This document shows, piece by piece, positions 11,467-30,512 of a stretch of 58,310 nt of DNA. The stretch's first letter is position 1. Each line of letters opens with the position of its first letter. The notes beneath the pieces are model-generated. The model did not search any database. It was not told the origin of the DNA and was given only the letters and a program-made list of their open reading frames with translations. The DNA comes from Candidatus Woesearchaeota archaeon. GTDB taxonomy: Archaea > Nanobdellota > Nanobdellia > Woesearchaeales > JAGVYU01. The stretch lies in assembly GCA_043810355.1 (NCBI GenBank), contig JBDROB010000070.1, forward strand, positions 1 through 58,310, in the 5' to 3' direction. The translations under genes and the position numbers were made by a program.

Positions 11467-12702
11467 GTGAATTTGGAAATATTGATCCTTATCTTGGTCT
11501 TGCTGACTGCAAGCTTTATTATATCAAAATTTTTAGGTTATATAAAAATACCTCCAGTCCTAGGACCAATCATTATTGGAATATTCTTAGGAATACCTTA
11601 TGTAAAACTATTCTTGACATCAGGGAATCTTGAATTGCTTGAGTATTTGTCAAATGTCGGAATCATTTTCCTGATGTTTTATCTAGGATTAAAACTGGAT
11701 TTTCTGAGCCTGCAGAAGAATGCAAAAAAGCCATTATTGATATCAGCGTTTGCTTTCATCATCCCTTTGCTCATAGGATACTTTGTCTCGTTCTTTGTTT
11801 TTAATTTGTCAATGATAGAATCAGCCATCATCGGCTTCTCAATCTCAATATCAAGTGCAGCAGTGACAGTAATGATCCTTAAAGACTATAATCTGATCAA
11901 TTCCAGACTGGGAAACACCCTGATCGGAGCTACATTGATTGATGATATTTTTGGATTTCTAGTGATTTTAGGAATAATCGCAATGAAAAGAACATACCAA
12001 AATCCTGAGATTGGATTTTTGCTCATATTATTTGATTTCCTGATATTTATCTCATTGATATACATAGTAAGGTATCTTGTTGTACCTGCAGTCTTGAAAC
12101 TGATAGAGAAAAGAAACCAAAAAGTTGACTTATTTGTGGTTTCAGTCATAATGGCATTGCTGATGACAATAATCTCAGACCTGCTGAAGGTTGATTCAGT
12201 ATTGGGCGCATTCCTAGCTGGTATGATTGTGAGATACACTCTATTATCAGGAGGAAGACTAGAATATAAAAAGGAAAAGGATGTTACAGAACTTATCGAG
12301 GTTGCAACATTTGGATTCTTAGCGCCATTCTTTTTCATCTGGCTTGGATTTAATTTTGACATCCTTCAGTTCATTCAAATAAATCCAATATTGGCAATAA
12401 TCATAATTGTTGCAGCATTATTTGGAAAATTCATCGGAGTTGCAATTGGAAATGGGTTTGCAGGAGGTAATTTCCAGGAATCATTAGTATATGGATGGGG
12501 GATGAATATGAGAGGGGGATTAGAGCTAGTGCTGATTGAGATTGCAAGGGCATCAGCCTTCATATCAGGCGGGATATTCTCAGCGATAATAGTGATGACA
12601 ATAATCACCACATTTATCTCATCTGTATTTTTCAAGAATGATATATTGCTGTATAAATCTGCGAACAGGAAAAAATATGATAATCCCAAATATCGCAATT
12701 AA
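11467..12702 (+). CDS. Cation:proton antiporter (CPA2/KefB-like)
   Basis: About 12 TM segments; IPPVLG, GATLIDD, LGAFLAG, APFFFIWLG, GKFIG, RGG motifs. Confidence 0.9.
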   Translation: MNLEILILILVLLTASFIISKFLGYIKIPPVLGPIIIGIFLGIPYVKLFLTSGNLELLEYLSNVGIIFLMFYLGLKLDFLSLQKNAKKPLLISAFAFIIPLLIGYFVSFFVFNLSMIESAIIGFSISISSAAVTVMILKDYNLINSRLGNTLIGATLIDDIFGFLVILGIIAMKRTYQNPEIGFLLILFDFLIFISLIYIVRYLVVPAVLKLIEKRNQKVDLFVVSVIMALLMTIISDLLKVDSVLGAFLAGMIVRYTLLSGGRLEYKKEKDVTELIEVATFGFLAPFFFIWLGFNFDILQFIQINPILAIIIIVAALFGKFIGVAIGNGFAGGNFQESLVYGWGMNMRGGLELVLIEIARASAFISGGIFSAIIVMTIITTFISSVFFKNDILLYKSANRKKYDNPKYRN

Positions 12703-12703
12703 T

Positions 12704-12862
12704 ATGTCAGAAATATGCCGCTGGCCTGCATGACCAGTGGGCAATAGTCCGCAATCCATTTTTGGAAGGCGGTATATTTCTGAGCATGCTCAAAGCCAGC
12801 AGGGTGAGCGAAGCGAACATGCCGCCAGCATATTGACTGGTGGTTCCTGCCGGCTTTGACAT
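12704..12862 (+). repeat. 159-bp structured dispersed repeat, copy 1
   Basis: ATGTCAGAAATAT...CTTTGACAT; highly similar, same-length copies at 39039-39197 and 56209-56367; starts 1 nt after the antiporter stop. Confidence 0.95.
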
Positions 12863-12924
12863 GAGGCATGATAAAACCAAAAAAATAGCAAAACTTAAAT
12901 ACTTAAATTTCAAAGGGTTTGATA

Positions 12925-13650
12925 ATGGCAAAAAAAGCGGTGAATAAGAAAGGGAACAGCAGTTCAATGGATCCAAACAGGATATCTTCAGGAATACCAA
13001 AATTTGATGAATTATGCCAAGGCGGTTTCACAAGGCATTCAGTAAACCTGATATCAGGAGGGCCAGGATGCGGAAAGTCAATATTCTGCATGCAGTTTCT
13101 ATGGCATGGTGTGACAAGGATGAACGAGCCAGGAGTGTTTGTGTCAACCGAGGAGGAAGTTGATGACCTGAAAGAGGATGCGCTGAAATTTGGGTGGGAT
13201 TTTTCCCAACTTGAAAAAGAGAAAAAACTAGTCTTCATATATTTCAATCCATATGACATGACAGGATTAAAGGATAATCTGAACTCAGCGATAAGAAAAG
13301 TCAATGCAAAAAGGGTTGTGATAGACAGCATCTCAGTATATGGGATGGGGCTTGAGAATGAATTTGAAGTGAGGAAAGCACTTTATGACCTTTCAAGCTT
13401 TCTAAAGGAGACTGGATGCACATCATTGATGACAAGCGAGATAGTTGAAGACAGCAATGGAATAAAATTAAGCAGGTTTGGTGTTGAAGAGTTTCTTGCA
13501 GACAGCATAGTTGTCATAAGATTTGAGAGCATGGGAGGGGATTATTCAAGAAGCCTTCTTATAAGAAAGATGAGAAGGACAAATAACAATGAGGATATAC
13601 ATCCTTTGGAGATATCTAATAGGGGATTATTATTGCATAATCTTGATTGA
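12925..13650 (+). CDS. RAD55/KaiC-like (GvpD family) single-domain ATPase
   Basis: SSGIPKFDEL, Walker A GGPGCGKS, STEE, Walker B VVIDS, IRKMR. Confidence 0.9.
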   Translation: MAKKAVNKKGNSSSMDPNRISSGIPKFDELCQGGFTRHSVNLISGGPGCGKSIFCMQFLWHGVTRMNEPGVFVSTEEEVDDLKEDALKFGWDFSQLEKEKKLVFIYFNPYDMTGLKDNLNSAIRKVNAKRVVIDSISVYGMGLENEFEVRKALYDLSSFLKETGCTSLMTSEIVEDSNGIKLSRFGVEEFLADSIVVIRFESMGGDYSRSLLIRKMRRTNNNEDIHPLEISNRGLLLHNLD

Positions 13651-13808
13651 TTTATTTCTATCTTAAAAACAAGAGGTCTTGGCATGGTCAGAAAAGAAAA
13701 GTTTTTCTGAGACATTTGACATTTATAATGGGCTTTAAAGCTACAGTAAACTGTAACATTTGTTTATTGAAAATTCCGACTCTCTTGTTGGAATTTTCTA
13801 TTGGGTCT

Positions 13809-13942
13809 AATACCCCGACCTTTAGGTCGGAATTTTTAATGCTAAAAAATGCTTTGCATTTTTTGCACACCAGAAATTTGCTAAGCAAATTTCTCAGTGT
13901 CCCAAAAACCAAACGATAAATACCCCTGCCTTTAGGCAGGGG
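13809..13942. mobile_element. Probable non-autonomous IS200/IS605-type mini element (two end-like hairpins)
   Basis: Hairpins CCGACCT-TT-AGGTCGG (13815-13830) and CCCCTGCCT-TT-AGGCAGGGG (13923-13942), both in an AATACCCC context and in direct orientation; resemble IS200/IS605 subterminal palindromes; no transposase between them. Confidence 0.5.
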
Positions 13943-14012
13943 AATAGTTCGGTTTTTGTTATATTTGGAAAGAGCAAAAAATGAGCTTGACCTTGCCAAT
14001 GCAATCTTCAAA

Positions 14013-14095: not shown

Positions 14096-17056
14096 ATGAT
14101 TAAAAATTGTTTGATAGTCTTTTCTGTATTCTTCTTAGTTATTCCCATAGCCATATCCAGCTATCCTGAACCTTATGTTGAGAATGGAGAGTTTAATTCT
14201 ATTATCATACTTGGGGAAGAAGGAAGTTATTATGATGGGATTAGCGCAAATAAGCTAGGTGAAGCTTTGGGAGCAGTTAGTTCTGGAAAGGCAAGAGTTG
14301 CTTCATATAATATTGGCGATCTGCATGTTTATGGGGATGCTTTTCAAGTGAGACAAAATGGTGATATATTAGAAGGTTCTGAGTTTGTTCATGATGTGAT
14401 AAATATCTTAGATAGTAGTCATTTGGAAATGCTTAAAGATGGAGAATTTTCTACAAGTAAAGGTAATTTTGTTTATGATCAAACTTTGGAAGTGCCAGGA
14501 GGGGCATACAATTCATTGGAATATGCCAGGGGAATTCCTGATGATGATTCAAATATTCCAAAAGGCTATATGCTCTTTAACTCAAGCTATGTTTATACTT
14601 ATACATTAAGTTTTATTGATACGCCAATTTCTGAGATTGATACTGCTGCAAATGGGTATGAGCTAAAGGATTTTGAAAAATCTGACATAACAATGCTAGG
14701 GAAGGAATTCTTTTTAATTGACACTGACCATAATGCAAACAACAGTGTTGTTTTGACATTATTGAGCGGAGCAGAAAAAGGAGTTCTTCAGGAGGGGGAG
14801 AAAAAAGAATATGAATTAAATGGGGAGAAGTATGAGATTGAGTTGGTTGCTGTTCAAGATGTTGCTCCGAGCACTGCATTGTTTAAAATTAATGGGGTTT
14901 CTACAAATTCGATTTTAGAAGGAAATACAGATATTGTTAATGGAATGCAAATTACTGTTAGTGAGATTATTCCAAATGAGGCAGGAGATGTGACACTTGA
15001 TTTAGTTGAGTTTTACCTTGACTCTTATAAGGTTGTATTGAAGGATACTGATGTTTCAAGTACGAGTACAGGTGGGCAGCAATATAAAGTTAATGATGAA
15101 ACTATAGATGATACTCGAGTTGAAATTGTTGCTGAAGATGATGGGAGAATTGCTGGAGAAGAATTTAAGCTTAATCAAATTATTATTAGGTGGGCTCCAT
15201 CACAAACCCATTATGTAGAAACAGAACAGTATCTTTCAGAAGTTTTGGAGGAAAGAGATGCATTGTTTGGCAATCTTGACTATTATTTTTATGGATCAAA
15301 TCCCAACAATGAAATAGAGTCTGTTGATCTTATTCCAAAAGGCAATAATGAGTATGTGCTTAAGTTTGAGAATTTGGATAGTGAATTATTAGAGGTTCCT
15401 CTTTTTTATAATAATGACGGAAGTTTTACAAGGTTTGGAAATTCAAATCATGCTCTTGTTGTGGATGAGGTGAGGGATATAACTCAAAATGACTTTTTCC
15501 TTGTAACAACTGATGGATCTGCTAATCCAACAGAAGCAAAAGGATTGACAAAGCTTTTCCAGTACAAAGGGCAGGATGTATCTGAAAACACCTTGAAATT
15601 CAAGAATATGGGGACAGGCGAGGTCTTTAAAATCAATTATAATGCAACTGACTCATTGAATGTAGGTGGGGAAGAATTTATAATAAGTGTAAAGCAAAGT
15701 GCAGTTAATAATGGAAATATTTCAATAGACTTGAATAAGGATGGAAGCATAGATTCTGGAGATGTTCCAGTATTGGTTACTAAGTATTTGGCAAAAATAG
15801 TATTGGATGCAAATACTTTTAGTAAGCTTGAAGTAATTTCTCCTGATTCTGAAGAAGGGGTTTCATTGGCAGCATGGGCTCCTTATGGAGTTACTGAAGG
15901 CCATGATTATTTTCTAATAAGTGTGGGTTCTGATTCAAGGGGGAATATTGATATTGGTGCTCTTGGAAGGTGTTTAAGTTCGAATCTTGATGAGATGACT
16001 GTTGCACTTGGAGCAGGACTTGCAGCTGTAGTGCAGGCAGGATGTTACAATACTTGGACAAATGTGACTTACTCTTTCTTAAAAAGAGTTGGAACAACAG
16101 ATAATTATGATGGAGCTGGAGCTTGGGGAAGTTTTGTTGAATTGTACAAAGATAATAATGGTCCAGATACTATTTATATTGCAGGAGCAAAGAAAATGGA
16201 TGAGACATTGTTCTTTATTACTGATACAAATGCTGAATTTGAGCTTATTGAAGAAGAAGATGAAGAGAGTAATGCTTCAGTATTTGGATTGACATCAAAA
16301 AATATCATTCTTGATAGTGATATAACTAGTAAGAAGAATATTATATCAGTTGGAGGTCCTTGTATTAATCAGAAGACAGCTGAGATAATGGGATTAAATT
16401 ATCCTACATGTGGTGATTTAGGAGTTGGTCCTGGAGAAGCATTGATAAAGGAGTATGATTATGAAGATGGAAAAGTGCTTGTTGTTTTTGGCTATGATTC
16501 TCTTGACACTTTTAATGCTGTTGAAAAGTTGAATTCAGGAATTGAATTGTATGATAATAGTGTTTTGATTAAAGGGGATATTGCAACGGAGTTTACAGGG
16601 TTGATTGAGAAAAAGGTTGAGAAGGTGATGACTACGACCACTACCTTGCTTGAGTCTACTCTTGGATGCGATGGGGGAGCTCTTGCTATAGGTAGGTATG
16701 ATACTCAATCGAGAAAATTTGGAGTAAGAGTAAATAGATACACTGATGTATCAATTGATATGAAAGGACTAAATGGAGTGCTAACTTTAACTGTAAATAA
16801 ACCATTTAAGTCGCAACTTGGTGTTGATTTCCTTGATTATTCTATTCATATAAGACAAGATGATTGTTTTGGCAATGAAGTCCAACTGATTGATGGGCAG
16901 CAGACTGAAGGGGAACAAGTATTAATACATGAGATCATTGTTCCAGAGCCTGGTTGTTACTGTATGTATATAGAAAATGAAGATTTTTTCTTGGATTCAG
17001 CATCAATTGAGCTGAAACCGACAGGCACATTTATGCTTCCTTTTGGAACTAGTTAG
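14096..17056 (+). CDS. S-layer-like protein with extra C-terminal domain
   Basis: Signal peptide; N-terminal YPEPYVENG..IILGE..D..SA and C-terminal IISVGGPCIN...VLVVFGY..DT motifs of archaeal S-layer N/C domains; acidic, beta-rich; TTTTT linker then about 130 aa extra. Confidence 0.75.
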   Translation: MIKNCLIVFSVFFLVIPIAISSYPEPYVENGEFNSIIILGEEGSYYDGISANKLGEALGAVSSGKARVASYNIGDLHVYGDAFQVRQNGDILEGSEFVHDVINILDSSHLEMLKDGEFSTSKGNFVYDQTLEVPGGAYNSLEYARGIPDDDSNIPKGYMLFNSSYVYTYTLSFIDTPISEIDTAANGYELKDFEKSDITMLGKEFFLIDTDHNANNSVVLTLLSGAEKGVLQEGEKKEYELNGEKYEIELVAVQDVAPSTALFKINGVSTNSILEGNTDIVNGMQITVSEIIPNEAGDVTLDLVEFYLDSYKVVLKDTDVSSTSTGGQQYKVNDETIDDTRVEIVAEDDGRIAGEEFKLNQIIIRWAPSQTHYVETEQYLSEVLEERDALFGNLDYYFYGSNPNNEIESVDLIPKGNNEYVLKFENLDSELLEVPLFYNNDGSFTRFGNSNHALVVDEVRDITQNDFFLVTTDGSANPTEAKGLTKLFQYKGQDVSENTLKFKNMGTGEVFKINYNATDSLNVGGEEFIISVKQSAVNNGNISIDLNKDGSIDSGDVPVLVTKYLAKIVLDANTFSKLEVISPDSEEGVSLAAWAPYGVTEGHDYFLISVGSDSRGNIDIGALGRCLSSNLDEMTVALGAGLAAVVQAGCYNTWTNVTYSFLKRVGTTDNYDGAGAWGSFVELYKDNNGPDTIYIAGAKKMDETLFFITDTNAEFELIEEEDEESNASVFGLTSKNIILDSDITSKKNIISVGGPCINQKTAEIMGLNYPTCGDLGVGPGEALIKEYDYEDGKVLVVFGYDSLDTFNAVEKLNSGIELYDNSVLIKGDIATEFTGLIEKKVEKVMTTTTTLLESTLGCDGGALAIGRYDTQSRKFGVRVNRYTDVSIDMKGLNGVLTLTVNKPFKSQLGVDFLDYSIHIRQDDCFGNEVQLIDGQQTEGEQVLIHEIIVPEPGCYCMYIENEDFFLDSASIELKPTGTFMLPFGTS

Positions 17057-17174
17057 TTTGTCTAGTTCTTTTTTTTACTACTTTTTTTCGAAGCATTTAT
17101 ATATTGGAACAATACAACATCCATATTTTTATTACTAATAAATAGTAAACAATTGTTCAGAATTATATATCACA

Positions 17175-20100
17175 ATGACACTACGAAGATCTATACTTAT
17201 AGTTGAAAGTGGTCCTAGAAGGGCTGATCTAGAAGGGGTTTTAAAAGCTTCTTTTCCAGATTATACTATTTATTCTTTTGCTCAGCCTTCAGATGTTAAT
17301 CTTCCAGAGTTAAGCGGTGTTGATGTTGTAATCGGAGATTATGCCTTTAGTGATCAAGGGGATTTTATGCTAGCTGAATTGGCTCAACATAATCCTAATG
17401 CAAGGCAATTAATTTTAGCTAATCAGGATCAAGTTTCCAAAGCAGTTGGTCTTATAAGCGATGGTAGAATAAATGGGTATATTCTGAAGCCATTAGAAGC
17501 GATTGAGGCAATGGTTGTTCCTGTTCTTGAGGAATTATTTCAAAGAATCCATCTTTCAGGAAGTGAATTTCAGGCATCACAACTTGACCAAAAAAGGGTT
17601 ATTGATATTTTTAAAGATTATGGCAATCCTATATTAACTAAGTTATTGCAAATGTTTGGCATGGACACACGTTTTGCAAAGGCAGAAGGCCAGTATGTGT
17701 TTGATGCTGATGGAGAAAAATATTTAGATTTGCTTGGTTCTTTTGGGGCTCTTAATTTAGGTCATAATCCTCCTCAGATTGAAGCAAAGTTACGAGAGAT
17801 TGCTATGTCTCCAAAATTACTTCAGCCCGGACTTAATCCTTATCATGCAGAAGTACTTATGCTTCTTGACCAAATAACGCCAGATTCTGTTTCTAGAGCT
17901 TATTTAGCAAACAGCGGAGCTGAAGCAACAGAAGCAGCTCTTAAATTAGTGGCAGCAGCTACTGGAAAAAGTGCTGTTGTCCATACACAAGGATCATTTC
18001 ATGGAAAAACTCTTGGTGCACTTTCTGTGACCGGAAATCGCAAATATCAAGGACCTTTTAGTGGTTTACTGGTCCAACAACCAGTTATCCCTTATAATGA
18101 TCCAGAAGCACTTGAAAAGATGTTAAGTTCAAGAGATGACATTGCTGCTTTTATTGTTGAACCTATCCAGGGAGAAGGAGGAATTAATGTGCCTTCATCT
18201 GATTATTTGCAAAGAGTTAGGGATATTTGTACTGAACACGGTGTTTTGTTAATTGTTGATGAAATTCAAACTGGACTTGGTAGAACAGGAAAAATGTTTG
18301 CCTCTTCAGATATAAATCCAGATGTTTTACTTATTGGAAAATCACTAGGAGGTGGTCATGTACCTGTAAGTGCAATGATGACTTCTGATAAATTATGGAA
18401 TCTGGCATATGGAACAACTGATAGTGCATTATTGCATACATCTACTTTTAGTGGAAATACTACTGCTTGTGCAGTTGCTGCTGAGTCGATAAGAACATTG
18501 CTAAGTGGTAATTATATTGATAGAGCCAAAGTATTGGGGGATTATCTTTTATCTGGATTACAATATTTACAAGAAATGCATGATATTATTAAGGAAGTCA
18601 GAGGGCAAGGATTAATGATTGGTATTGAATTTAACAAACCCTTTCTTGGAAACCTAATGACTGAGAATTATCTTGGTCAAATAATTGCAGGACAATTATT
18701 CCGTAATTACCATATTATTACTTCTTTTACTCTTAATCGACCAAACATTTTGAGAATTGAACCTCCTTTAACAATAACAAAGGAGGATATTGATTATGCC
18801 TTAAAGTCTATGGATGACCTATTTACAAGATTACCTAAACCAGAACATCATGTAGCCACAATGATACAGTATATGACAAGTGAGGATCTTGATGAAATGG
18901 TTGAAATGGGAACAATTATTGGAGGAAGACAAGAACCAGTTGATTTGGATTCTGCTCATGTGAATGTTATTGCAGATAGACTGATAGCAGATCCTGCTTT
19001 ACTTATGTTAAGAACTAAAACATATGGATCTCTTGATCCTGATCGACGCGAACTGGTTTCGTCAGTTTATACAAATACAATAACTGAGATAAATCAAAGA
19101 GCTTTACAAGCTTCATGTGATGCTGCTAAAGATTTTCATGCAGTTCCCATGTCACAAAGACATAAAGCTCTTGCCAAGTGGGGTGATTTAGTTACAGAGA
19201 ATTTTTCAAGTTTGGTAAAAATAGGCACATTTGAAGGTTTTAGTTATCAAGCTATGCTCTGGCAATTAGACACTATCTTAAATATTCTTGATCCTGAACA
19301 TTTGGTTACTTTAGAAAATATGATGAGGCCTTACCAAACAGCACAAGGTTCAAGAACAGTGTTTTATCGAGAATCAATTCCTGGAGTTGTTGGAATTACT
19401 CCTGCCGCTAATGCTGCAATTGTTTTAGGAACATTAGGTGTTGCATCATCTGTCAGTAGTGGAAAATCATTTGTAATGTCTGCAGGTACCTCTCTTACTA
19501 CGCATACTTTAATGAATTATCTTATAGATGCGTTTGAGGAAAATGGAATTGATCCTGCTCCTATTAATGTTATTTATAGCAATAACAGGGGTTCGATAAA
19601 GGAATGGCCTGGATTTGGAATAAGTGATAGTGGAATTGTGACAGTTGATCCTTCTCTTGAACAGAGAAGAGCTCTTGATTTTGTTGCTTATTGGGGACCA
19701 AGGAATGAAAAACTCATGGAATCTTTTGATAAAGCCGGAATTCAGGGCAGTTATGACCTTAATGGATCAGATCCTATTATTGTAAATAAAGATGCTGACA
19801 TTGACAGAGCTGTCTCTGACATAATGCTTAGGTATGCTGCAAGTGGACAAATATGTATTTCTCCAAAAAGAGCAATTGTGCATGAAGATGCAGCAGGGAT
19901 TGTGTTAGAGAAAGTTAATTATGAAATTAAACAATTACGTGCAGGACTGCTATCAGATCCAACAACAGATTTAATGCCTGTACCTGGCATAAGAGACAGA
20001 AGTAGGTATGAAGAAGCTATTAAACAAGCACTTGGAGAAGGAGGCTTAGTTTATATTAGCGGGGAATTAGTTCCTCTAGGAACAGAATTTTCAAGCTTAG

Positions 20101-20552
20101 AATTATGTCTTGATTACCAAGGAAAACCAGTTGCTTTTGGACCTTATTTAGCACCTGCTGTTGTTCAGGTTCCTCCAGGAAAACAATTTATTGCGGCTTT
20201 AGAAGAAATGTTTAATCCTTTATTATCTTTTCAAATATTTTCAACTCCTGAAGAAGCTATTAATTTAGCTAATAGTTCACGATATGGAATTCGAGCAGGA
20301 GTATGGGCTGAGGATACTCAATTTGTTAATGAGTGTGTTACAAGAATAGGTTCTGCATCGGTATTTGTTAATACACCTCACCTTAACTTATCGCCAGATT
20401 CTCCTGATTTAGGGGGTGGCAAAGATTCAGGTAGAAATATAGGTCCTGGAGGAGCGAAATACTTAGTATATGAATTTGCAGGACCACTTAAACAAGTTAA
20501 ATTCTATTCAAAAGAAGCTGCTAAAGCATTTATGGCTGGATACAAACCTTAA
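17175..20552 (+). CDS. Fusion: receiver domain + class III PLP aminotransferase + aldehyde dehydrogenase-like domain
   Basis: REC: ILIVE, VVIGD, GYILKP. AT-III: YLDLLGSFGALNLGHN, NSGAEATEAALK, SFHGKT, EPIQGEGG, DEIQTGLGRTG, GKSLGGG. ALDH: GITPAN, DLNGSDP, SGQIC, EEMFNP, ANSSRYGI. Confidence 0.85.
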   Translation: MTLRRSILIVESGPRRADLEGVLKASFPDYTIYSFAQPSDVNLPELSGVDVVIGDYAFSDQGDFMLAELAQHNPNARQLILANQDQVSKAVGLISDGRINGYILKPLEAIEAMVVPVLEELFQRIHLSGSEFQASQLDQKRVIDIFKDYGNPILTKLLQMFGMDTRFAKAEGQYVFDADGEKYLDLLGSFGALNLGHNPPQIEAKLREIAMSPKLLQPGLNPYHAEVLMLLDQITPDSVSRAYLANSGAEATEAALKLVAAATGKSAVVHTQGSFHGKTLGALSVTGNRKYQGPFSGLLVQQPVIPYNDPEALEKMLSSRDDIAAFIVEPIQGEGGINVPSSDYLQRVRDICTEHGVLLIVDEIQTGLGRTGKMFASSDINPDVLLIGKSLGGGHVPVSAMMTSDKLWNLAYGTTDSALLHTSTFSGNTTACAVAAESIRTLLSGNYIDRAKVLGDYLLSGLQYLQEMHDIIKEVRGQGLMIGIEFNKPFLGNLMTENYLGQIIAGQLFRNYHIITSFTLNRPNILRIEPPLTITKEDIDYALKSMDDLFTRLPKPEHHVATMIQYMTSEDLDEMVEMGTIIGGRQEPVDLDSAHVNVIADRLIADPALLMLRTKTYGSLDPDRRELVSSVYTNTITEINQRALQASCDAAKDFHAVPMSQRHKALAKWGDLVTENFSSLVKIGTFEGFSYQAMLWQLDTILNILDPEHLVTLENMMRPYQTAQGSRTVFYRESIPGVVGITPAANAAIVLGTLGVASSVSSGKSFVMSAGTSLTTHTLMNYLIDAFEENGIDPAPINVIYSNNRGSIKEWPGFGISDSGIVTVDPSLEQRRALDFVAYWGPRNEKLMESFDKAGIQGSYDLNGSDPIIVNKDADIDRAVSDIMLRYAASGQICISPKRAIVHEDAAGIVLEKVNYEIKQLRAGLLSDPTTDLMPVPGIRDRSRYEEAIKQALGEGGLVYISGELVPLGTEFSSLELCLDYQGKPVAFGPYLAPAVVQVPPGKQFIAALEEMFNPLLSFQIFSTPEEAINLANSSRYGIRAGVWAEDTQFVNECVTRIGSASVFVNTPHLNLSPDSPDLGGGKDSGRNIGPGGAKYLVYEFAGPLKQVKFYSKEAAKAFMAGYKP

Positions 20553-20553
20553 A

Positions 20554-21705
20554 ATGGCAAGAAGAATAGAGACTTTTAATGGAGATTTTGATGAGTTGCG
20601 TGACTTGATATTACGATCTTGGCATCCTGCTTATGATGGTCAAGCTGCAGTTTTTGATTATAGTGTACCATATTTGCAATGGAATCTTCAAGGCTCTACT
20701 TCTGATAAAGAGTTATCTTTATCTTATTACGATGGAAGTACCCTAGTGGGATTTGTGGGGGGAATGCCAAGAACTTTTAGTCTATTTAGTTCTCAAACAG
20801 TAAATGGAAGTTTGTGCAGTTTTTTATCATCTGATGTTAGTACCAAAAGAAGTAGAATCGCTTATGATCTTGTAACTCATTCTTCCGAGAGGCATCATCA
20901 AAGAGGTTATGATTTCCCTTTCTTTTTTTTGGATAAGAATTTTTCAGGGTCTCATCTTCTTTTTCATAAGCATGCTGATGAACATATTTACGATCTCGTA
21001 AGTCTTCCCGACACAAGTTTTTTAATTAAAGTTTTTGATGCTCAGAGATTTAGTGATTTAGATGCTTCAGTATCTAATATAGAGAGAAGAATTCTCAAAA
21101 TGTGGGAATCAGACCCTGTTCCTTTTGAAGTTGATGGCAAAATGCGTGAATATGATGATTCAGATCTTAGCACTTGTTTGTCTTTATTAAACTCCTATAA
21201 ATTCCATATTAATCTTGCTCGTCATTGGACTGAAGATGAATTACAATGGCAATTGTCACATCAAGGGATTAGTAGTACAACTGTATTTGAGAAAGACAAT
21301 CAAATTCAAGGGTTAATAAATTATCATGTAGTGCCTATGCATGGTCGGCCAGGTGTTGCTGGATCTCTTGCAATCATTGATAATATTTATTGGTTTAATC
21401 TTTCTGATCGTGAAAGACAATCTTTTTTATCACAAACTCTGAACCAGATCCAACAATCTCAAGATATACTTGGTGTTTTGGTTTTAGATTTTCCATATTA
21501 TAATCATCAAGATAATTCATCTGTTAAAATTGGAAAAAAGAGTTTTATTTTGAGATCTTTAACAAATCTGGTTCATAACAAACCGTTTAGAAAAACAGGT
21601 TTCTTACCTTTATTGCGTAGATTGGAACCAAATTTTATTGTATATGATCCTGCCATTGCTTCACAAATTGGAAAATGCAATTCAGTGTATTCAGATTTTA
21701 GATAA
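20554..21705 (+). CDS. N-myristoyltransferase-like tandem GNAT acyltransferase
   Basis: Start MARRIE 1 nt after the upstream stop; FDYSVPYLQW, LVGFVGGMP, SFLSS...RSRIA, MREYDDSDL...LLNSY, WTEDELQW parallel NMT motifs (FDYS.EFL.W, LVGFISAIP, NFLCV..LRSKRVA, LRPM...D...LL..Y). Confidence 0.65.
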   Translation: MARRIETFNGDFDELRDLILRSWHPAYDGQAAVFDYSVPYLQWNLQGSTSDKELSLSYYDGSTLVGFVGGMPRTFSLFSSQTVNGSLCSFLSSDVSTKRSRIAYDLVTHSSERHHQRGYDFPFFFLDKNFSGSHLLFHKHADEHIYDLVSLPDTSFLIKVFDAQRFSDLDASVSNIERRILKMWESDPVPFEVDGKMREYDDSDLSTCLSLLNSYKFHINLARHWTEDELQWQLSHQGISSTTVFEKDNQIQGLINYHVVPMHGRPGVAGSLAIIDNIYWFNLSDRERQSFLSQTLNQIQQSQDILGVLVLDFPYYNHQDNSSVKIGKKSFILRSLTNLVHNKPFRKTGFLPLLRRLEPNFIVYDPAIASQIGKCNSVYSDFR

Positions 21706-22833
21706 TGATTTAATCACAAAAACACATTCCTTCTTACCTTGAGCTATACATATAAGCTCCTCACATTTAAACTTCTCTGTAAATAATGTCTGAAATAAAT
21801 TCTCCAAAACTTGAGCTAGGAATAGGTCTGTTGGGTTCTTTGAAATTCCGAATATTTTTTTATATTCATCGGCAAATGGGTTATTTATATTTTTTATTAT
21901 GAACTCTAAATTCTTAAGGTTAGATTTAACAATAATAAATTTACCAAAGCAAGAAAGCGAAAGACGATTCAAAAAGAAAATAAGTTCATCTTTTGTTTTG
22001 ATTTCTTGATTTCTTTTCTTAATTATTCTTTTGACATGGCCTTCTGCCAGTAACATTAGCGCTTTTCTTGCTTTCTTATTATTGATTTCTTCTAGCTTTT
22101 TATTCAATATCACTATACAATAACAAGGAAATAAAACTCCTTGAGTGTTCTCAAAACCAACAGACCCTTCTGTGAAACTAAAAGGTAACTTTTCTTTTTT
22201 ATTATTGCTTATACTCTTTAACTTAGCAAATACACTAGTAAAGCATTTTTCAATCTCTTTTTCAATCTTCAAATGATTTTCATTTAAATCCTTCTTTTTT
22301 TCAAGTTTGCATACAAAATTACAAGATTTGTCACCCCTTCCCAAACATTGAGTTTCAATAGTATAAAAGTTCTTTTTATGAATGGTTTCGAGCACTCCAC
22401 TGATTAATCCGCTAAAATAGAAATTCATAACCTCTTTGGACTTTTTAGATTGATTAGCTTTTAATGCAATTGGCATATTTGTTATCCTTATTTTATATTC
22501 TTTCTTTTCTTCATTTACACTATACAACTCCGCTGATCCATATCCTATTAGGTCGCTTTGTTCAATAAACATCTTATAGCTTCCTTTAAAAATAAAACCA
22601 AATCTTTTGATTATTATTAATGCACCCATTTTGCCTTGGTTTCTTCCAATCTCATAAATTATCTTTTTATATTGTTCATCAAACTCATTTTGAATAAAAA
22701 GGAGATAATCAGAAAAAGATTGAACTTCAAAATAAGTGTAAGGTAAAGAAGATAAATGTAATAATCCCTCAGAGAACTTAATTTCATTAAATCTAAGTAT
22801 ATTGTAAATAAATTTTATAATTCTATTACCCAT
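21691..22833 (-). CDS. Tandem V4R (4-vinyl reductase) domain protein
   Basis: Two repeats ending ETQCLGRGDKSCNF and ELICIAQGKKECVF; IIYEIGRNQG, LIGYG, FSGLISG features. Confidence 0.8.
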   Translation of the reverse strand: MGNRIIKFIYNILRFNEIKFSEGLLHLSSLPYTYFEVQSFSDYLLFIQNEFDEQYKKIIYEIGRNQGKMGALIIIKRFGFIFKGSYKMFIEQSDLIGYGSAELYSVNEEKKEYKIRITNMPIALKANQSKKSKEVMNFYFSGLISGVLETIHKKNFYTIETQCLGRGDKSCNFVCKLEKKKDLNENHLKIEKEIEKCFTSVFAKLKSISNNKKEKLPFSFTEGSVGFENTQGVLFPCYCIVILNKKLEEINNKKARKALMLLAEGHVKRIIKKRNQEIKTKDELIFFLNRLSLSCFGKFIIVKSNLKNLEFIIKNINNPFADEYKKIFGISKNPTDLFLAQVLENLFQTLFTEKFKCEELICIAQGKKECVFVIKSLSKI

Positions 22834-22927
22834 AGAGTATATTTAATTTAGACAATATATTAATGTTTCTGAATATATTAGAAAAAAGTTAGGATAGATC
22901 ATGTTTGTGTTCAATTAAGTTTGTTAC

Positions 22928-23374
22928 TCAAGAGGGTCTTAGTTGTTCATAAATTTCTAAACCCTTCTGAATTCTTGCACACAGTCTTTTTCCATATTCA
23001 GGTTTTTTCTTGTCAATCCAACCAACTAAAAGTCCTGGATGATTAAGGGCATCTTCCATAACTTCTGGACCTGCTTGTGCTGTATTCATAATTATTTGAG
23101 AATATGGTGATATTCTTTTAATGGCTAGAGCGGAGTCAAATCCGTTTTTTACTAGAGAATTATCATCTTTGGGAGGTGCTTTGTAGTCAAGTATCACAAT
23201 AGGTACCTCATATCCTTCTTTAATAGCCTCTTCCACAAAATGTGCAACTTCATCTGGATATTGTGATTTACGAAGATTAAAGCCATCAAACTTTTCATGC
23301 TCTCTTATCTGAGTGACAACTATATCTAAACCTGTTTTTTCATCATCCATAATATATATTATTCCTTTTCTCAT
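22928..23374 (-). CDS. Single-domain response regulator
   Basis: IYIMDDE, VILDYKAP (phospho-Asp), MNTAQ, WIDKK. Confidence 0.85.
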   Translation of the reverse strand: MRKGIIYIMDDEKTGLDIVVTQIREHEKFDGFNLRKSQYPDEVAHFVEEAIKEGYEVPIVILDYKAPPKDDNSLVKNGFDSALAIKRISPYSQIIMNTAQAGPEVMEDALNHPGLLVGWIDKKKPEYGKRLCARIQKGLEIYEQLRPS

Positions 23375-23400
23375 TTTTTTACTTTAGAGTGAATATTTTA

Positions 23401-25377
23401 TTATAAATCTTTTGGCTCTTTTGGTAATCTGACTTCAAAAACTGTTAATTCTGGGCTTGAATATACACTAATTTGACCATCATGGTCACTAATTGCATTA
23501 TAACATTGAGATAATCCAAATCCAAGGCCCTTTGCTTTTGTTGTAAAAAAAGGATCAAAAATTTTAGTTCTTAAGTCTTCTGGAATTTCAGGACCATTAT
23601 TTGAGAATCTGACAACTATAGAGTCCCTTTCTTGAAATGTTTCTAATCTTATCATCCCTTTATCTTCAACTGCTTCAATACCATTTTTTAACAGATTAAG
23701 CCATGCTTGATTAAGATCTGCTACTTTGCCATAAAACTCTGGAATAGAACCATATTCTGTTACTATTTGAACATTTTTTTTCTTTGCTTCATGGTTAATT
23801 AAACTAACAGTTGTTTGTAAGTCTTCAGCAATATTAGTAAGAGCAACAGTTTCTTTTTCATGTCTTGAAAATCCCAAGATTGCATTTACAATTGTTGAGA
23901 CTCTTTGCACACCTTCTCCAAGGTTCCTTACTCTTCTTTCATAAACTGATGCAAAATCAAATATTTTTCTAAATATCTCTTCTGAGATTAGGTACTTGTC
24001 AGCAAGTCCAAATATAAATTTAACATCTTCTCCCTTTAGGCCAGCTTTTGCATATGATTCAGCTACTATTATTGCTCTAGGTACATTTCTTTCTTCAAAT
24101 AAATACTCCATTGCCTCCGCATTGGCTTCTACTTCTCTTTCTTCTATTTGACATGACTGAATAAACTGGTGAATTATAAACTTATATCTTTCAAATTCAT
24201 TTGGTTCAAATATTTGTTCAAAAACATTTTGACTAAGGTCTCGAACAACTTGCCTGTATTCTTCCAAAGTATCTACAGATGGCCTAACAGGAAGCAATGC
24301 ATTTCCCATTTCATGTGCTATACCTGCACTAAGCTGCCCTAAAGAAGCCATTTTTTCTGATTGGACAAGTTGAGCTTGTGCTTCTCTGAGTTCAGCTGTC
24401 CTTGCTTCAACCATTTCCTCAAGGTGTTCTGCATATTCTTTAAGTTGGGTTTGAGCTCCTTGGAGATCCTTATGAGCCCCTTGAAGCTCAAAGAATTGGC
24501 TTTCAGAGTATTCTAATTGTCTTTCTATCATAGCTCTTGTAATAAAATATTGTTTTAATCTCTGGATAGGAAGATGTACTAATCGGTGTCTTAGACTTGG
24601 ATTCTGCCATTTCATATCATATTGACAATGAGGTGCTCCATAAATTCGACCTGATGTCAATACAACTTTTCCATCAATAGATAAATCTTTTAGCACTGCT
24701 ACTCCATTTCTTCCATTATTATTTTGGACATGGACTTCCTTACCATATACTTGGCCATTGATCAACACTTTTTCATCCTCTCTTGTTAACTCTAACCCAA
24801 GATGTGAATATCCTTCAATCACTTCTTCAATAGTGAATATACATCTTGGTTCGTTAATATCTGCTACAGGCAAGTCCCAAATAGTAGGGATTGTTGCAAT
24901 AATTCCTTTGTTCCATGGACACATTAAATATATTGAAGTATCCCTTACCAAGGGATTATATCCTATAGTAACTGTTGCAGAATTATTTCCCAGATCTGAA
25001 ACATCCATGTCAAATATCCTATTGAATCTTCTGTTATACTTTGGAATCTGGCTAACTATAAACCTTGGATTTCCAAATAATCTAACCATATTTTCAAGAA
25101 TACCTACAGAACGTAACTTGGACATATTGACACCAATCTCATAGAATAAATCAGGATCTTGGTTACCTAATAACTCTTGTATAGATAAAACTAGTTTTCT
25201 TGCATGATTCCAGTCTATCCAATGATTTGGATCAGAAACAAATTCTTCTGTCAACTCACTTCCTTCAAAGAGGTGACTAATATCCCCTACTTCAGACATT
25301 ACAAACTGAAGCATAGTGTTGTAATTCATACAACTTACTCTTGTCTCAGGATCAATATCTAATTGTAATTCCCCCAT
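23401..25377 (-). CDS. Cytoplasmic sensor histidine kinase with N-terminal V4R/HNOB-like domain
   Basis: QLVQSEKMASLGQLSAGIAHEMGN (H-box), LNQAWLNLLKNG (N), NNGPEIP, IFDPFFTTK, GLGFGLS; no TM; N-domain CPWNKG...EPRC...GAPHCQYDMKW Cys pattern. Confidence 0.9.
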   Translation of the reverse strand: MGELQLDIDPETRVSCMNYNTMLQFVMSEVGDISHLFEGSELTEEFVSDPNHWIDWNHARKLVLSIQELLGNQDPDLFYEIGVNMSKLRSVGILENMVRLFGNPRFIVSQIPKYNRRFNRIFDMDVSDLGNNSATVTIGYNPLVRDTSIYLMCPWNKGIIATIPTIWDLPVADINEPRCIFTIEEVIEGYSHLGLELTREDEKVLINGQVYGKEVHVQNNNGRNGVAVLKDLSIDGKVVLTSGRIYGAPHCQYDMKWQNPSLRHRLVHLPIQRLKQYFITRAMIERQLEYSESQFFELQGAHKDLQGAQTQLKEYAEHLEEMVEARTAELREAQAQLVQSEKMASLGQLSAGIAHEMGNALLPVRPSVDTLEEYRQVVRDLSQNVFEQIFEPNEFERYKFIIHQFIQSCQIEEREVEANAEAMEYLFEERNVPRAIIVAESYAKAGLKGEDVKFIFGLADKYLISEEIFRKIFDFASVYERRVRNLGEGVQRVSTIVNAILGFSRHEKETVALTNIAEDLQTTVSLINHEAKKKNVQIVTEYGSIPEFYGKVADLNQAWLNLLKNGIEAVEDKGMIRLETFQERDSIVVRFSNNGPEIPEDLRTKIFDPFFTTKAKGLGFGLSQCYNAISDHDGQISVYSSPELTVFEVRLPKEPKDL

Positions 25378-25451
25378 GAGAGTTAAGAATGAATAACAAT
25401 ATTTAAATTTAATGAGTTAGATTTATATAGTATTTTATTTATAATTATATT

Positions 25452-26561
25452 ATGCTTGAAATAATTGAGGTGACAAATAATAAGAATCTTAAGAAGTTTC
25501 TTAAATTTTCTAATAAAATATATGAAAATGATAAGAACTGGATTAAACCATTTTTAGATGAGAAAAAAAAGTTTTTCAGTGATAAAAATCCTCAATGGAA
25601 ATATATAGAAAAATATCCATTAATCCTTTTAGACAATAACAAGATTGTAGGGAGAATATGTGGATTTTTAGACAAAGAAATCATGAAAAAACAATCATTA
25701 GGATTTTTTGGATTTTTTGAAGTGTTAGACAATCCAAAATACTCAAGATTATTATTAAACAAAGTTGAAGAATGGCTAAAAAATAAGAATGTGAATAAAA
25801 TAGTAGGTCCAATAAATAGCTCACTTGAAAATTATACTGGATTTCAATTAAAAGGATTTAACCAAATCTCAACTCCTTCTCTTACTTATACAAAAAAATA
25901 TTATATCAAACATATGAGAAAAAATAATTATAATCATATAAAAAAATTAAATGCATATATAATCAATTTAGATGAATTTAATGTATCAACATTGAAACCT
26001 TTACACAATAATATAAGGACAAATATTCGACCTTTAAATATCAAAGAATTTGATATTGAATCAAGATCTATCTTGGATATCATCAATAATTCATTTCCAG
26101 ATGACTATTTTGGCTTCAGAAAAATCAATATTGATGAATGGAAATTTTTAATTGAGTCTTTAAGACCTCTAATCAATCCAGAGGATATCTTAATCTATGA
26201 AGAGAATAAAAAACCAATTGGAGTTTTGTTTAGTATTCCAAATATAAATATCATATTAAGGACAATAAAACTAAAAAATGATTTTATCAGGAAACTATTA
26301 CTATTCTTTAGAAAAAATTCAATATCAATGAGGGTAATCTCCTTAATATGTATAAAAAGAAATAATACTCAAAAAGGCATAGGCAGTTATTTGATGTCAG
26401 CTTACATCACTCAGGCAAAAAAAAGGGGAATAAAAAATATTGAATATTCTTGGGTTTACGATGATAATCAAGTATCAAAATCATTAATAAATAGATTCAA
26501 TGGAAGAAAATATAAAATATACCAATTATTCCAAAAAACATTAGTTAAAAATCACAAATAA
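25452..26561 (+). CDS. YghO / bacterial ceramide synthase (bCerS)-like GNAT N-acyltransferase
   Basis: IYENDKNWIKP, KNP, VGRI, GFFGFFE, EEWL, IVGPIN, KGF, YY, QKGIGS acyl-CoA loop, EYSWVYDDN pattern of this family. Confidence 0.75.
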   Translation: MLEIIEVTNNKNLKKFLKFSNKIYENDKNWIKPFLDEKKKFFSDKNPQWKYIEKYPLILLDNNKIVGRICGFLDKEIMKKQSLGFFGFFEVLDNPKYSRLLLNKVEEWLKNKNVNKIVGPINSSLENYTGFQLKGFNQISTPSLTYTKKYYIKHMRKNNYNHIKKLNAYIINLDEFNVSTLKPLHNNIRTNIRPLNIKEFDIESRSILDIINNSFPDDYFGFRKINIDEWKFLIESLRPLINPEDILIYEENKKPIGVLFSIPNINIILRTIKLKNDFIRKLLLFFRKNSISMRVISLICIKRNNTQKGIGSYLMSAYITQAKKRGIKNIEYSWVYDDNQVSKSLINRFNGRKYKIYQLFQKTLVKNHK

Positions 26562-27243
26562 TATCTTTACCTGCATAAACATAATCATTTTCCTTAATAT
26601 TTATCTGAATATTCTTTTTTCCGATCTTGTCAGGTAAGATAAGATCAACTTGTGATCCCATCTTTATCATCCCTATCTTCTGGCCTTTATTGACAATATC
26701 ACCTCTTTTTCTCCAGCAAACAACCTTTTTTACAACAGTATCAGCTATCTGGATAATATAGACTGGAAATGACTTATCTTTGACCTTTCCCATTATCAGG
26801 ATTGTGTTCCTCTCATTCTCCAGTTCATAGTTATATTGGCCAGGTCTGGACAATTTATGGAAAATGACTTTGATCAACATGATCAACATTGACTTATTCT
26901 TGTGTGTTGTGTGCTTAATAAAATCAATCTTTCCAGAAACAGGAGCTCTATTGACATGGACACTTAAAGGATTCATAAAAATTCCAATTATATACCCATT
27001 CTTTATATTCTCCTTGATGTGAGTGATTTCCTGTAGTTTGATACTTCTTCCATTCTTGTTTGGATTTGGAATCTTTCCATTTGAAAATCTCTTGATATAA
27101 ACAACTGTGCCATCAGCTGGACTCACTAGATTATTCCCAGCAGGTATCCATCTTTTTGGATCCCTGTAAAATAATGCATATTTCCAAATAATTGTAAGTG
27201 CTATTAAAACAATCAATAATATCAATAAAAAATTTAATAACAA
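26545..27243 (-). CDS. psd: Phosphatidylserine (archaetidylserine) decarboxylase proenzyme
   Basis: N-terminal TM, FYRDP.R, SPADG, IFMNPLSVHVNRAP, ENERN, GMIKMGSQVDL (GS pyruvoyl cleavage site). Confidence 0.88.
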   Translation of the reverse strand: MLLNFLLILLIVLIALTIIWKYALFYRDPKRWIPAGNNLVSPADGTVVYIKRFSNGKIPNPNKNGRSIKLQEITHIKENIKNGYIIGIFMNPLSVHVNRAPVSGKIDFIKHTTHKNKSMLIMLIKVIFHKLSRPGQYNYELENERNTILIMGKVKDKSFPVYIIQIADTVVKKVVCWRKRGDIVNKGQKIGMIKMGSQVDLILPDKIGKKNIQINIKENDYVYAGKDIICDF

Positions 27244-27258
27244 AATTACACCTCTTTT

Positions 27259-28803: not shown

Positions 28804-28870
28804 AAAATACCTTAATGATATTTATTGTATATAAATCTTATTCTTTAAGAGATAAAAAGAAAAAGAGATG

Positions 28871-30016: not shown

Positions 30017-30099
30017 TTTAATACTATCGAGAATACTAGGATATTTAAAAATATTATTGTTTTTCTTATTATAGAATGAATACAATAATTGAATTGGCA

Positions 30100-30247
30100 T
30101 GGACACTGGATGGTATCATTCGCTTTGCTCTTTCTTTTATCCTGTTTAAGGTGCTAAAAGCTTATGCTTTCACCACTGATAGTGTCACTCGTTCCTTTAT
30201 CCAGTGCCCAGCACTCAAACTTTGGGTTTGAGCATTGGACACTGGAC
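30100..30247. repeat. Structured intergenic palindromic element
   Basis: TGGACACTGGAT (30100-30111) pairs with ATCCAGTGCCCA (30199-30210); hairpin CTCAAAC...GTTTGAG; TGGACACTGGA repeated near 30236; GAGCAAAGCGAA on minus strand at 30119-30130. Confidence 0.5.
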
Positions 30248-30353
30248 ATTCTGAGACAAGGTTTATATATAAATTCCAATTATGCAATCAAAGGTGTTGG
30301 CAATTGGAGATTAAATTTTCAAAAAAGAAAATTGAATTAGATAAATATTTAAG

Positions 30354-30512
30354 ATGAAAGTTCCTGATATTGATCTTGAAAAGCTAGAAAAATTTAAAGA
30401 AAAGAATTTCAAGGATAGGCTGGACTTTATAAGAAAGTATGCAGAATGGATAAAAAAAACACCAAACAAGGAATGGAGTTCTCAGCAGAAGAAGATTATC
30501 AACAAAAATTAG
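30354..30512 (+). CDS. 52-aa hypothetical protein (not in ORF track)
   Basis: Hand translation MKVPDIDLEKLEKFKEKNFKDRLDFIRKYAEWIKKTPNKEWSSQQKKIINKN*; host-like codon use; fills the gap up to the convergent patatin stop. Confidence 0.6.
   Translation: MKVPDIDLEKLEKFKEKNFKDRLDFIRKYAEWIKKTPNKEWSSQQKKIINKN

Follow-up and report, generated by a model that had tools for sequence, protein, structure and literature searches.

Fusions of a class III aminotransferase to a redox domain that forms or uses an aldehyde occur naturally, and are sought as one-protein catalysts for turning acids into amines. PigE (Serratia) is described as aminating the aldehyde that its fused thioester reductase supplies (PMC8341465), TamH (Pseudoalteromonas) as a thioester reductase fused to a class III aminotransferase by which the aldehyde is aminated (PMC9594044), and PP_2782 and its thermophilic homologues as an AAR-like domain fused to the aminotransferase (PMC10829540), thioester reduction followed by transamination being set out as a general logic (PMC5365063). 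The redox partner in this group is an AAR-like or SDR-type thioester reductase, and no member is described as carrying a receiver (REC); the main text of PMC10829540 contains no occurrence of 'receiver', 'response regulator' or 'aldehyde dehydrogenase'. A second arrangement, that of PatA (YgjG) with PatD (YdcW), AstC with AstD and GabT with GabD, has an aldehyde dehydrogenase (ALDH) acting on the aldehyde made by a class III aminotransferase, with the two as separate proteins and the ALDH sites canonical. Receiver domains on standard metabolic enzymes are a known trend in bacteria and archaea, and the main text of the report on response regulators with enzymatic output mentions an aminotransferase or dehydrogenase output zero times (PMC5847659). 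Receiver–metabolic enzyme fusions, transaminase–reductase fusions and aminotransferase–ALDH pairs of separate proteins are thus already known; here we describe a gene, P0001, that joins a divergent receiver-like domain, a class III aminotransferase and an ALDH-like domain in one frame. It lies in a stretch of 58,310 nucleotides (hereafter the window; contig JBDROB010000070.1, positions 1 to 58,310, assembly GCA_043810355.1) from a Candidatus Woesearchaeota archaeon, an assignment with which the S-layer-like, V4R and KaiC genes of the window and the large number of small genomes in its order agree. We put at roughly 40% the reading in which both catalytic domains share one aldehyde intermediate and the ALDH-like domain works non-hydrolytically through a thioester, probably in the reductive direction.

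Our literature search found no description of a class III aminotransferase joined to a PF00171 domain, whether or not a receiver is present (the supplements of PMC5847659 and PMC10829540 may hold such architectures), none of an ALDH branch with the set of replacements reported below, none of E268D, and nothing relevant on a receiver domain combined with an aminotransferase. The gene and its parts are:

17175–20552, + strand: REC–class III aminotransferase–ALDH-like fusion gene P0001 (single open reading frame, Pfam, relatives with the same junctions)
17187–17564, + strand: divergent receiver domain, residues 5–130 (PDB sequence matches, AlphaFold2 (AF2) model, Foldseek)
17568–18833, + strand: PigE/putrescine-type class III aminotransferase, residues ~132–553 (Pfam, NCBIfam, PDB)
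18834–19016, + strand: family-specific linker and N-terminal extension of the ALDH-like domain, residues 554–614 (RLPKPE...TIIGG..PVDL; alignments)
19017–20549, + strand: remodelled ALDH-superfamily domain, residues 615–1125 (Pfam, 2wox alignment, AF2, Foldseek)

P0001 is a genuine fusion. It forms one open frame of 1125 amino acids with no internal stop or frame change over 3378 nt, and upstream of its ATG the frame stays open for 11 codons only. Pfam recognizes Aminotran_3 at residues 167–548 (E 1e-94) and Aldedh at residues 615–1092 (E 3.4e-42). The initial annotation, made from the letters of the window alone, had proposed this triple fusion; its domain coordinates are correct to within ~20–30 residues, and the fusion is real, the aminotransferase–ALDH junction being kept in three other independent assemblies. 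The linker at residues 554–614 is kept in all family members, and is poorly modelled (pLDDT <50 in parts).

How rare this architecture is became apparent from searches of protein collections and genomes, which yielded only three relatives. A search of 5.8 billion proteins returned 105 (618–1969 amino acids) at E 0.001 among 8000 candidates scored, and just two of these share more than the aminotransferase with P0001: P0002 (1042 amino acids, 50% identity), an aminotransferase–ALDH protein with no receiver, and P0003 (760 amino acids, 45% identity), which comprises receiver, aminotransferase and the start of the ALDH domain. HMMER against 1.84 billion representatives gave P0001 and P0003 as the only such proteins among the best 150. 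Scanning genome contigs with P0001 alone produced no relative; alignment-based scans then gave two loci, L009 (a metagenome contig) and L014 (from a Candidatus Hydrogenedentota bacterium), which are 99.99% identical over 11,917 nt and encode P0276, a 1034-residue aminotransferase–ALDH protein without receiver and with 51% identity to P0001. A scan of the phylum Hydrogenedentota (E<=1e-30) found the ALDH-like part in 2 of 135 genomes, that of L014 and a second one, G147, whose gene is a REC–aminotransferase–ALDH fusion split by contig ends (L022, 10443–12770, and L023, 4308–5543) with 45–49% identity to P0001. P0003 is 100% identical to the first 735 residues of the G147 protein; its remaining 25 residues, rich in Gly, Arg and Pro, apparently stem from an error of assembly or frame in that record.

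The family thus has four members, P0001, P0002, P0276 and G147/P0003, with the receiver present in P0001 and G147/P0003 and absent from the other two. The three bacterial members are 56–71% identical to one another and the archaeal member 45–51% to each of them. Every relative with a taxon label is a Hydrogenedentota bacterium. In the phylum of P0001 itself, 3 of 401 genomes match at E<=1e-30: the source genome, a genome designated G511 and one with a partial match of 116 bits; and among 61 relatives searched with P0001 there was no fusion, only stand-alone aminotransferases (<=220 bits) or ALDHs (<=71 bits). On our reading the enzyme is horizontally spread, and an architecture this rare is no common one with a known catabolic role. 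G511, a genome of the same taxonomic order as the source genome, was considered as a possible carrier of a split version of the fusion, and was rejected: its ALDH is canonical (Pfam 358.8 bits), the gene upstream of that ALDH encodes a FIST protein and not an aminotransferase, and instead of the PSD-like protein and ligase of the window it has an HD protein (231 amino acids) and a glycogen synthase (514 amino acids) as neighbours.

The aminotransferase domain looks intact. PF00202 matches at 318 bits (cut-off 30.5), SFHGKT is present, the pyridine-nitrogen Asp362 lies in DEIQTG (18258–18260), and the pyridoxal-phosphate lysine, already pointed out in the initial annotation, is Lys389 in GKSLGGG (18339–18341). 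Its best matches place it in the PigE/putrescine-aminotransferase clade: in NCBIfam the PigE model (NF053554) leads with 427 bits, followed by putrescine aminotransferase (NF008570) with 336 bits, each short of its equivalog cut-off (850 and 612, respectively), and in the PDB the PigE structure 4ppm (313.6 bits) precedes the putrescine aminotransferase 4uox (275.9 bits). The match to NF053554 covers only profile positions 368–735 of 837, the aminotransferase part, with no N-terminal reductase matched.

PigE, TamH and PP_2782 with its thermophilic homologues belong to the same aminotransferase clade, and are likewise single polypeptides that add an aldehyde-forming or aldehyde-using redox domain; the order of aminotransferase then redox domain is found in PP_2782 and TamH as well (PMC10829540, PMC9594044). 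What sets P0001 apart from them is the partner, a PF00171 domain. The nearest relatives of its aminotransferase are fused to AAR-like or other Rossmann reductases (in Pfam, weak Shikimate_DH/THF_DHG matches only), carrier proteins and adenylation domains; one database protein of the clade (P0262, 1054 amino acids) carries a tungsten aldehyde:ferredoxin oxidoreductase (AFOR_N, AFOR_C), and another (P0257, 1245 amino acids) an N-terminal FemAB-like/GNAT acyltransferase. These fusions to reductases, an aldehyde:ferredoxin oxidoreductase and an acyltransferase suggest that, in this clade, the fused partner is what handles the aldehyde.

The ALDH-like domain is unmistakable in fold and unusual in its active site. 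PF00171 matches at 145 bits (cut-off 23), and an AF2 model of the domain, a check proposed in the initial annotation, shows the complete three-domain ALDH fold (pLDDT 83.6, pTM 0.86), which Foldseek aligns to hydrolytic ALDHs (3ek1, ALDH1A, GapN and betaine-aldehyde dehydrogenase (BADH); E 1e-33, TM 0.83 by target). Among named families the nearest are BADH and the dehydrogenases of the HpaE, lactaldehyde and aminobutyraldehyde types, none with a score anywhere near its cut-off (for example 95 against 615). There is no close stand-alone relative of this part, the best reaching 81 bits with 36% identity over 41% of the query, and a search of the Atlas returned generic ALDH clusters only. We aligned the domain residue by residue to the betaine-aldehyde dehydrogenase 2wox and 23 canonical ALDHs, with the following result for the key positions, given in ALDH2 numbering (Cys302, Glu268, Lys192 and so forth):

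Asn169 (oxyanion), Asn in 23/23 canonical ALDHs: Asn746, kept in 4/4 family members
Gly245, Gly in 22/23: Gly841, kept in 4/4
Gly299, Gly in 23/23: Gly891, kept in 4/4
Cys302 (nucleophile), Cys in 23/23: Cys894 in SGQICIS (19854–19856), kept in 4/4
Glu399 (nicotinamide-ribose), Glu in 23/23: Glu1011, kept in 4/4
Phe401 (nicotinamide-ribose, paired with Glu399), Phe in 23/23: Phe1013, kept in 4/4
Lys192 (cofactor contact), Lys in 23/23: Ser769 in 4/4
Thr244 (cofactor contact), Thr in 23/23: Trp840 in 4/4
Ser246 (cofactor contact), Ser in 22/23: Pro842 in 4/4
Glu268 (general base, activates water), Glu in 23/23: Asp861 (19755–19757) in 4/4
Gly270 (cofactor contact), Gly in 23/23: Asn863 in 4/4

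The FTGS motif has accordingly become YWGP (residues 839–842), and ELGG has become YDLNG in P0001 and D(L/M)NG across the four members; the catalytic cysteine and both motif changes had been noticed in the initial annotation and are common to the whole family. So are changes in the loops: S(N/R)NR takes the place of the GxGxxxG loop, two residues are missing from the GSTxxG loop, and an insert of ~20 residues stands ahead of the latter. The Arg/Lys-rich replacement loop possibly serves to bind the phosphate of NADP(H) or coenzyme A (CoA). Of the 402 columns that the family members share, no more than 148 (37%) are invariant, so that the joint retention of catalytic and new residues points to selection and not to decay. 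On these alignments the domain constitutes a distinct, remodelled subfamily of the ALDH superfamily, and, if so, one in which Lys192, Thr244, Glu268 and Gly270, each invariant in the 23 aligned canonical sequences, have been replaced together.

Glu268, Lys192 and the FTGS and ELGG contacts, by which a hydrolytic NAD(P)+ ALDH would be recognized, are all absent from P0001. The signature of the CoA-acylating ALDH20, LuxC and ProA is missing too, Phe1013 and Asn746 being kept and position 861 being Asp, and Pfam finds no match to the LuxC family (PF05893) in P0001. ALDHs without the triad Glu are nonetheless instructive. They are described as losing the hydrolytic water and stabilizing the Cys-thioester for transfer, as in ALDH6, and the reductive members LuxC, ALDH20 and ALDH18 also lack this residue (PMC12041015). 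ALDH6 (methylmalonate-semialdehyde dehydrogenase), ALDH20, LuxC and ProA resemble P0001 in having lost the triad Glu and kept Cys, and in them the thioester is either retained for transfer or arises from an activated acid (PMC12041015). They differ from it in having Asn or His in place of Glu, where P0001 has Asp; by the class criteria, moreover, LuxC, ALDH20 and ALDH18 keep only Cys, with His replacing Phe401 in ALDH20 or Glu268 in ALDH18 (PMC12041015), whereas P0001 retains both Asn169 and Phe401 and is nearer to hydrolytic ALDHs in sequence and fold.

Immediately downstream lies a gene that bears on the chemistry:

20554–21705, + strand: co-transcribed double-GNAT acyltransferase of 383 amino acids with an N-myristoyltransferase (NMT)-like fold (weak Pfam, Atlas structure, PDB)

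Its ATG (20554) comes 2 nt after the stop codon of the fusion (20550–20552), and the two genes are translationally coupled; the initial annotation, too, had called the acyltransferase coupled. It matches Pfam NMT and NMT_C weakly and the PDB NMT structure 1iyk at E 1.9e-5; its Atlas structure has a TM of 0.86 to bacterial double-GNAT clusters (~350 amino acids) and of 0.76–0.78 to NMTs.

These observations suggest the following course of events. The aminotransferase and the ALDH-like domain would act in sequence on one aldehyde intermediate, which we consider very probable. The ALDH-like domain would handle this aldehyde through a thioester on Cys894 without hydrolysis; if the thioester is not hydrolysed, the reaction becomes the interconversion of an acyl-thioester (CoA or carrier) and an aldehyde. 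The replacement of Glu268 together with four cofactor contacts, conserved in the family, speaks against classical hydrolytic oxidation with NAD(P)+ and in favour of such a thioester-linked reaction, and we lean slightly towards non-hydrolytic chemistry; the conserved change is of the kind that the initial annotation had read as a CoA-acylating or reductively running site, and it fits non-canonical chemistry of either sort. More tentatively, the domain would run reductively with NAD(P)H, supplying the aldehyde that the aminotransferase converts to a primary amine, whereupon the co-transcribed acyl-CoA-type acyltransferase would N-acylate the product; the role of the receiver would be to tune activity or assembly. 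Were the ALDH thioester-linked or reductive, natural transaminase fusions would gain a third kind of aldehyde supplier, unrelated to those already found in them.

Several points weigh against this proposal. By sequence and fold the nearest kin of the domain are hydrolytic, oxidative enzymes (BADH and the aminobutyraldehyde, succinate-semialdehyde and HpaE dehydrogenases), and not LuxC, ALDH20 or ProA, with no LuxC match. A change from Glu to Asp is the mildest possible, and Asp861 might still activate water. Asn169 and Phe401 are both kept, unlike in LuxC and ALDH20, and with Phe401 in place the His used by ALDH20 is absent. The acyltransferases found beside the gene at two loci are not homologous, and the third locus, that of G147, has none beside it; oxidative routes with N-acyl protection would account equally well for an acyltransferase beside an aminotransferase and an ALDH. 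Because the family numbers four, three of them related bacteria, its conservation statistics are weak, and cofactor and substrate binding by the ALDH-like domain are predictions.

The alternative that survives best is accordingly an oxidative, two-step catabolic enzyme of the PatA–PatD, GabT–GabD or AstC–AstD kind, in which an omega-amine, possibly first N-acylated by the neighbouring gene product, is turned into an aldehyde that the ALDH domain oxidizes with NAD(P)+, with hydrolysis to the free acid and Asp861 as base. The second-best aminotransferase models are those of putrescine aminotransferase, the best ALDH models are betaine and aminobutyraldehyde dehydrogenases, and the fold is closest to hydrolytic ALDHs; these named families are thus the domains' neighbours in both halves of the protein. 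The order of the domains is that of the reaction, and Cys, Asn, an acidic residue at the base position, Glu399 and Phe401 are all kept. An acyltransferase working with a class III aminotransferase and an ALDH is, moreover, the logic of the arginine succinyltransferase (AST) pathway. Yet five positions that are invariant in the canonical ALDHs (one of them in 22 of 23) are changed in every family member, the general base and Lys192 among them, and an ordinary oxidative ALDH has no reason to change these. P0001 is also fused where the PatA–PatD type is separate, its site is altered (Glu268, Lys192, Thr244, Ser246 and Gly270 replaced), its scores are all far below the equivalog cut-offs (336 against 612 and 95 against 615), and its aminotransferase clade consists mostly of reductive-amination fusions. 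We regard the oxidative enzyme as a strong alternative, somewhat less likely than the preferred reading; were it correct, P0001 would be a curiosity of domain fusion and gene transfer.

A domain with no redox role is less probable still. Its Cys894 could hold the aldehyde in thiohemiacetal form, or the domain could be a scaffold for oligomerization or regulation of the aminotransferase, with the cofactor pocket closed or re-used for another ligand, and such a role would agree with the replacement of the Lys192, Thr244, Ser246 and Gly270 contacts, the bulky Trp at the Thr244 position, and the altered GxGxxxG and shortened GSTxxG loops. The inactive ALDH16 offers a precedent for a non-redox ALDH (PMC12041015). 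Against it stand Cys, Asn, Gly245, Gly299, Glu399 and Phe401, invariant in a family in which most columns are not, and a working pocket is suggested by the conservation of the replaced loops. That two or three separate genes were joined by mis-assembly or a lost stop codon is extremely improbable: the source genome is a draft (83 contigs, 87.6% complete) and the short contigs identical to the gene, from one groundwater DNA run, span neither the REC–aminotransferase nor the aminotransferase–ALDH junction, but the latter junction with its conserved linker recurs in three other assemblies and the former in G147/P0003, the frame runs through without stop or shift, and the possibility of an assembly artefact raised in the initial annotation is set aside by this recurrence. 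The contigs of that run, 100% identical, cover parts of the gene and the stop/start at 20552/20554; among the runs listed for this sequence there was no RNA run.

Returning to the preferred reading, we next consider how a non-hydrolytic enzyme of this kind might be controlled. Pfam finds no PF00072 in the whole of P0001 at E<=0.01, and the PF00072 search of its own genome misses the N-terminus as well; submitted alone, the N-terminus reaches E 0.038 and 14.6 bits, below the gathering cut-off of 30.2, and the relative P0003 scores 29.7 bits at the same place. In a PDB sequence search, receiver domains made up five of six matches, led by 2rjn, the receiver of a REC–HD protein, at E 0.002. The AF2 model (pLDDT 80.6, pTM 0.76) has (beta-alpha)5 topology, five strands alternating with helices, with the caveat that its helper alignment had three rows, two of them receiver proteins, and Foldseek gave receivers as the top PDB matches (TM 0.71–0.77). 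As modelled, then, the N-terminus is a divergent receiver domain, and the concern that it might not have a receiver fold did not materialize. A 135-residue query of the domain alone retrieved no protein at E<=0.01.

In its residues the domain bears out what the initial annotation had described, Asp and Lys kept and the acidic pocket and Thr/Ser degenerate. The phospho-acceptor Asp55 (17337–17339) and Lys105 (17487–17489) align with those of 2rjn, 1zgz, P0003, P0277 (a neighbouring receiver, below) and L010. After beta1 the pair at the Mg2+ site is Glu11–Ser12, the second acidic residue being gone, and after beta4 Ala82 stands at the Thr/Ser position; the receiver of the bacterial relative P0003 has a Glu–Asp pair, yet also Ala at the latter position. 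G147 has similar alpha5 and beta4 segments, and this likeness, together with the retained Asp55 and Lys105, makes the triple fusion probably older than the split of the archaeal and G147 lineages. The suggestion of an enzyme switched by phosphorylation fares less well, since P0001 lacks the second acidic residue and the Thr/Ser and two of the four family members lack the receiver altogether. Response regulators with enzymatic output share with P0001 an N-terminal receiver fold fused to an enzyme, and differ from it in these same residues; the P0001 domain may be a pseudo-receiver, and a genuine phospho-switch in this copy seems doubtful to us. If the reading is right, this would be a rare case of a receiver attached to an enzyme of the central-metabolism type, and one from the DPANN archaea, a group poor in two-component proteins (in the source genome, two solid and two weak matches to PF00072, and five to HATPase_c).

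The surroundings of the fusion include the following features, the last three as context only:

17097–17104, + strand: candidate archaeal TATA box TTTATATA, ~70 nt before the ATG (by eye)
21691–22833, - strand: V4R protein
22928–23374, - strand: divergent receiver P0277, 148 amino acids
23401–25377, - strand: histidine kinase P0279

The candidate TATA box comes after a T-rich stretch behind an S-layer-like gene. P0277 appears by eye to be a receiver with all canonical residues (IMDDE, VILDY, IIMNTA, DKKKP), although Pfam gave no match to it at E<=0.01 and the own-genome PF00072 search missed it. Comparison of P0277 with the fusion receiver (E 0.87), and of the NMT-like protein with a second GNAT at 25452–26561 (E 9.3), showed no paralogy. 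Rfam had no match in the window.

No gene other than the fusion is shared between the window, L009 and G147. At L009 a gap of 70 nt separates the fusion from a stand-alone 2-oxoacid_dh (E2/CAT-fold) acyltransferase downstream; at G147 a class I/II aminotransferase precedes the fusion, and an HTH-EIIA gene on the opposite strand comes next downstream. An acyl-CoA-type acyltransferase therefore follows the fusion at two of the three loci with context, the two being non-homologous, and with the NMT-like gene as query no homologue was found in G061, G147 or G001.

The last of these, G001, is a genome of the same genus and shows what the locus looks like without the fusion. Its flanks are syntenic with the window: the Na/H exchanger and KaiC genes are 92% identical in DNA, the S-layer-like gene 59% in protein, and the PSD-like and PaaK-like ligase genes 80–87% in protein. 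Between them G001 lacks the fusion and the NMT-like gene, as well as any counterpart of the 25452–26561 GNAT, and it does have V4R, receiver-like and histidine-kinase genes at the same place, with 25–33% protein identity. The variable island, between the S-layer-like and PSD-like genes, extends over 16614–26575 in the window and 5900–13850 in L024 (G001:C11), and the genes flanking it have 59–97% protein identity between the two genomes. The comparison suggests that the fusion and the acyltransferase form a cassette of two genes that was inserted next to a rapidly evolving signalling module. The link to the kinase is not conserved; as the diverged kinase module is present in a genome without the fusion, its adjacency is not evidence of partnership, and the link to the 23401–25377 kinase drawn in the initial annotation loses its footing.

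Combining these strands, one could suppose that a new non-hydrolytic ALDH branch replaced the usual AAR-like or thioester reductase feeding a PigE-type aminotransferase and, with the acyltransferase, formed a compact mobile cassette (activated acid to aldehyde to amine to N-acyl amine), gated by the receiver, which crossed between Hydrogenedentota and a DPANN archaeon. As a whole this scenario is speculative, and we rate it as rather unlikely. If it holds, a host-dependent archaeon would have gained the signal-controlled making or remodelling of amide-linked (lipid-like) molecules.

Other features of the region were noted in passing. Two KaiC-family ATPase genes, at 12919–13650 and 31392–32096 (both + strand; 34% identical), bracket it. 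Between the Na/H exchanger and the first KaiC gene lies an intergenic element of ~165 bp (12699–12861) that matches more than 35 places in G001 at 85–93% identity, a dispersed short repeat that is possibly like a miniature inverted-repeat transposable element; behind the same KaiC gene, a repeat of ~200 bp (13763–13965) recurs at seven places in G001 over at most ~200 bp with 74–99% identity. On the - strand at 26545–31297, four genes encode a PSD-like decarboxylase, an adenylating enzyme resembling PaaK/F390 synthetase (62 bits, in NCBIfam only), a 411-residue protein that matches no family and a patatin-like phospholipase. Synteny with G001 extends over the first three, and the run is possibly a set of genes for lipid remodelling in a DPANN genome.

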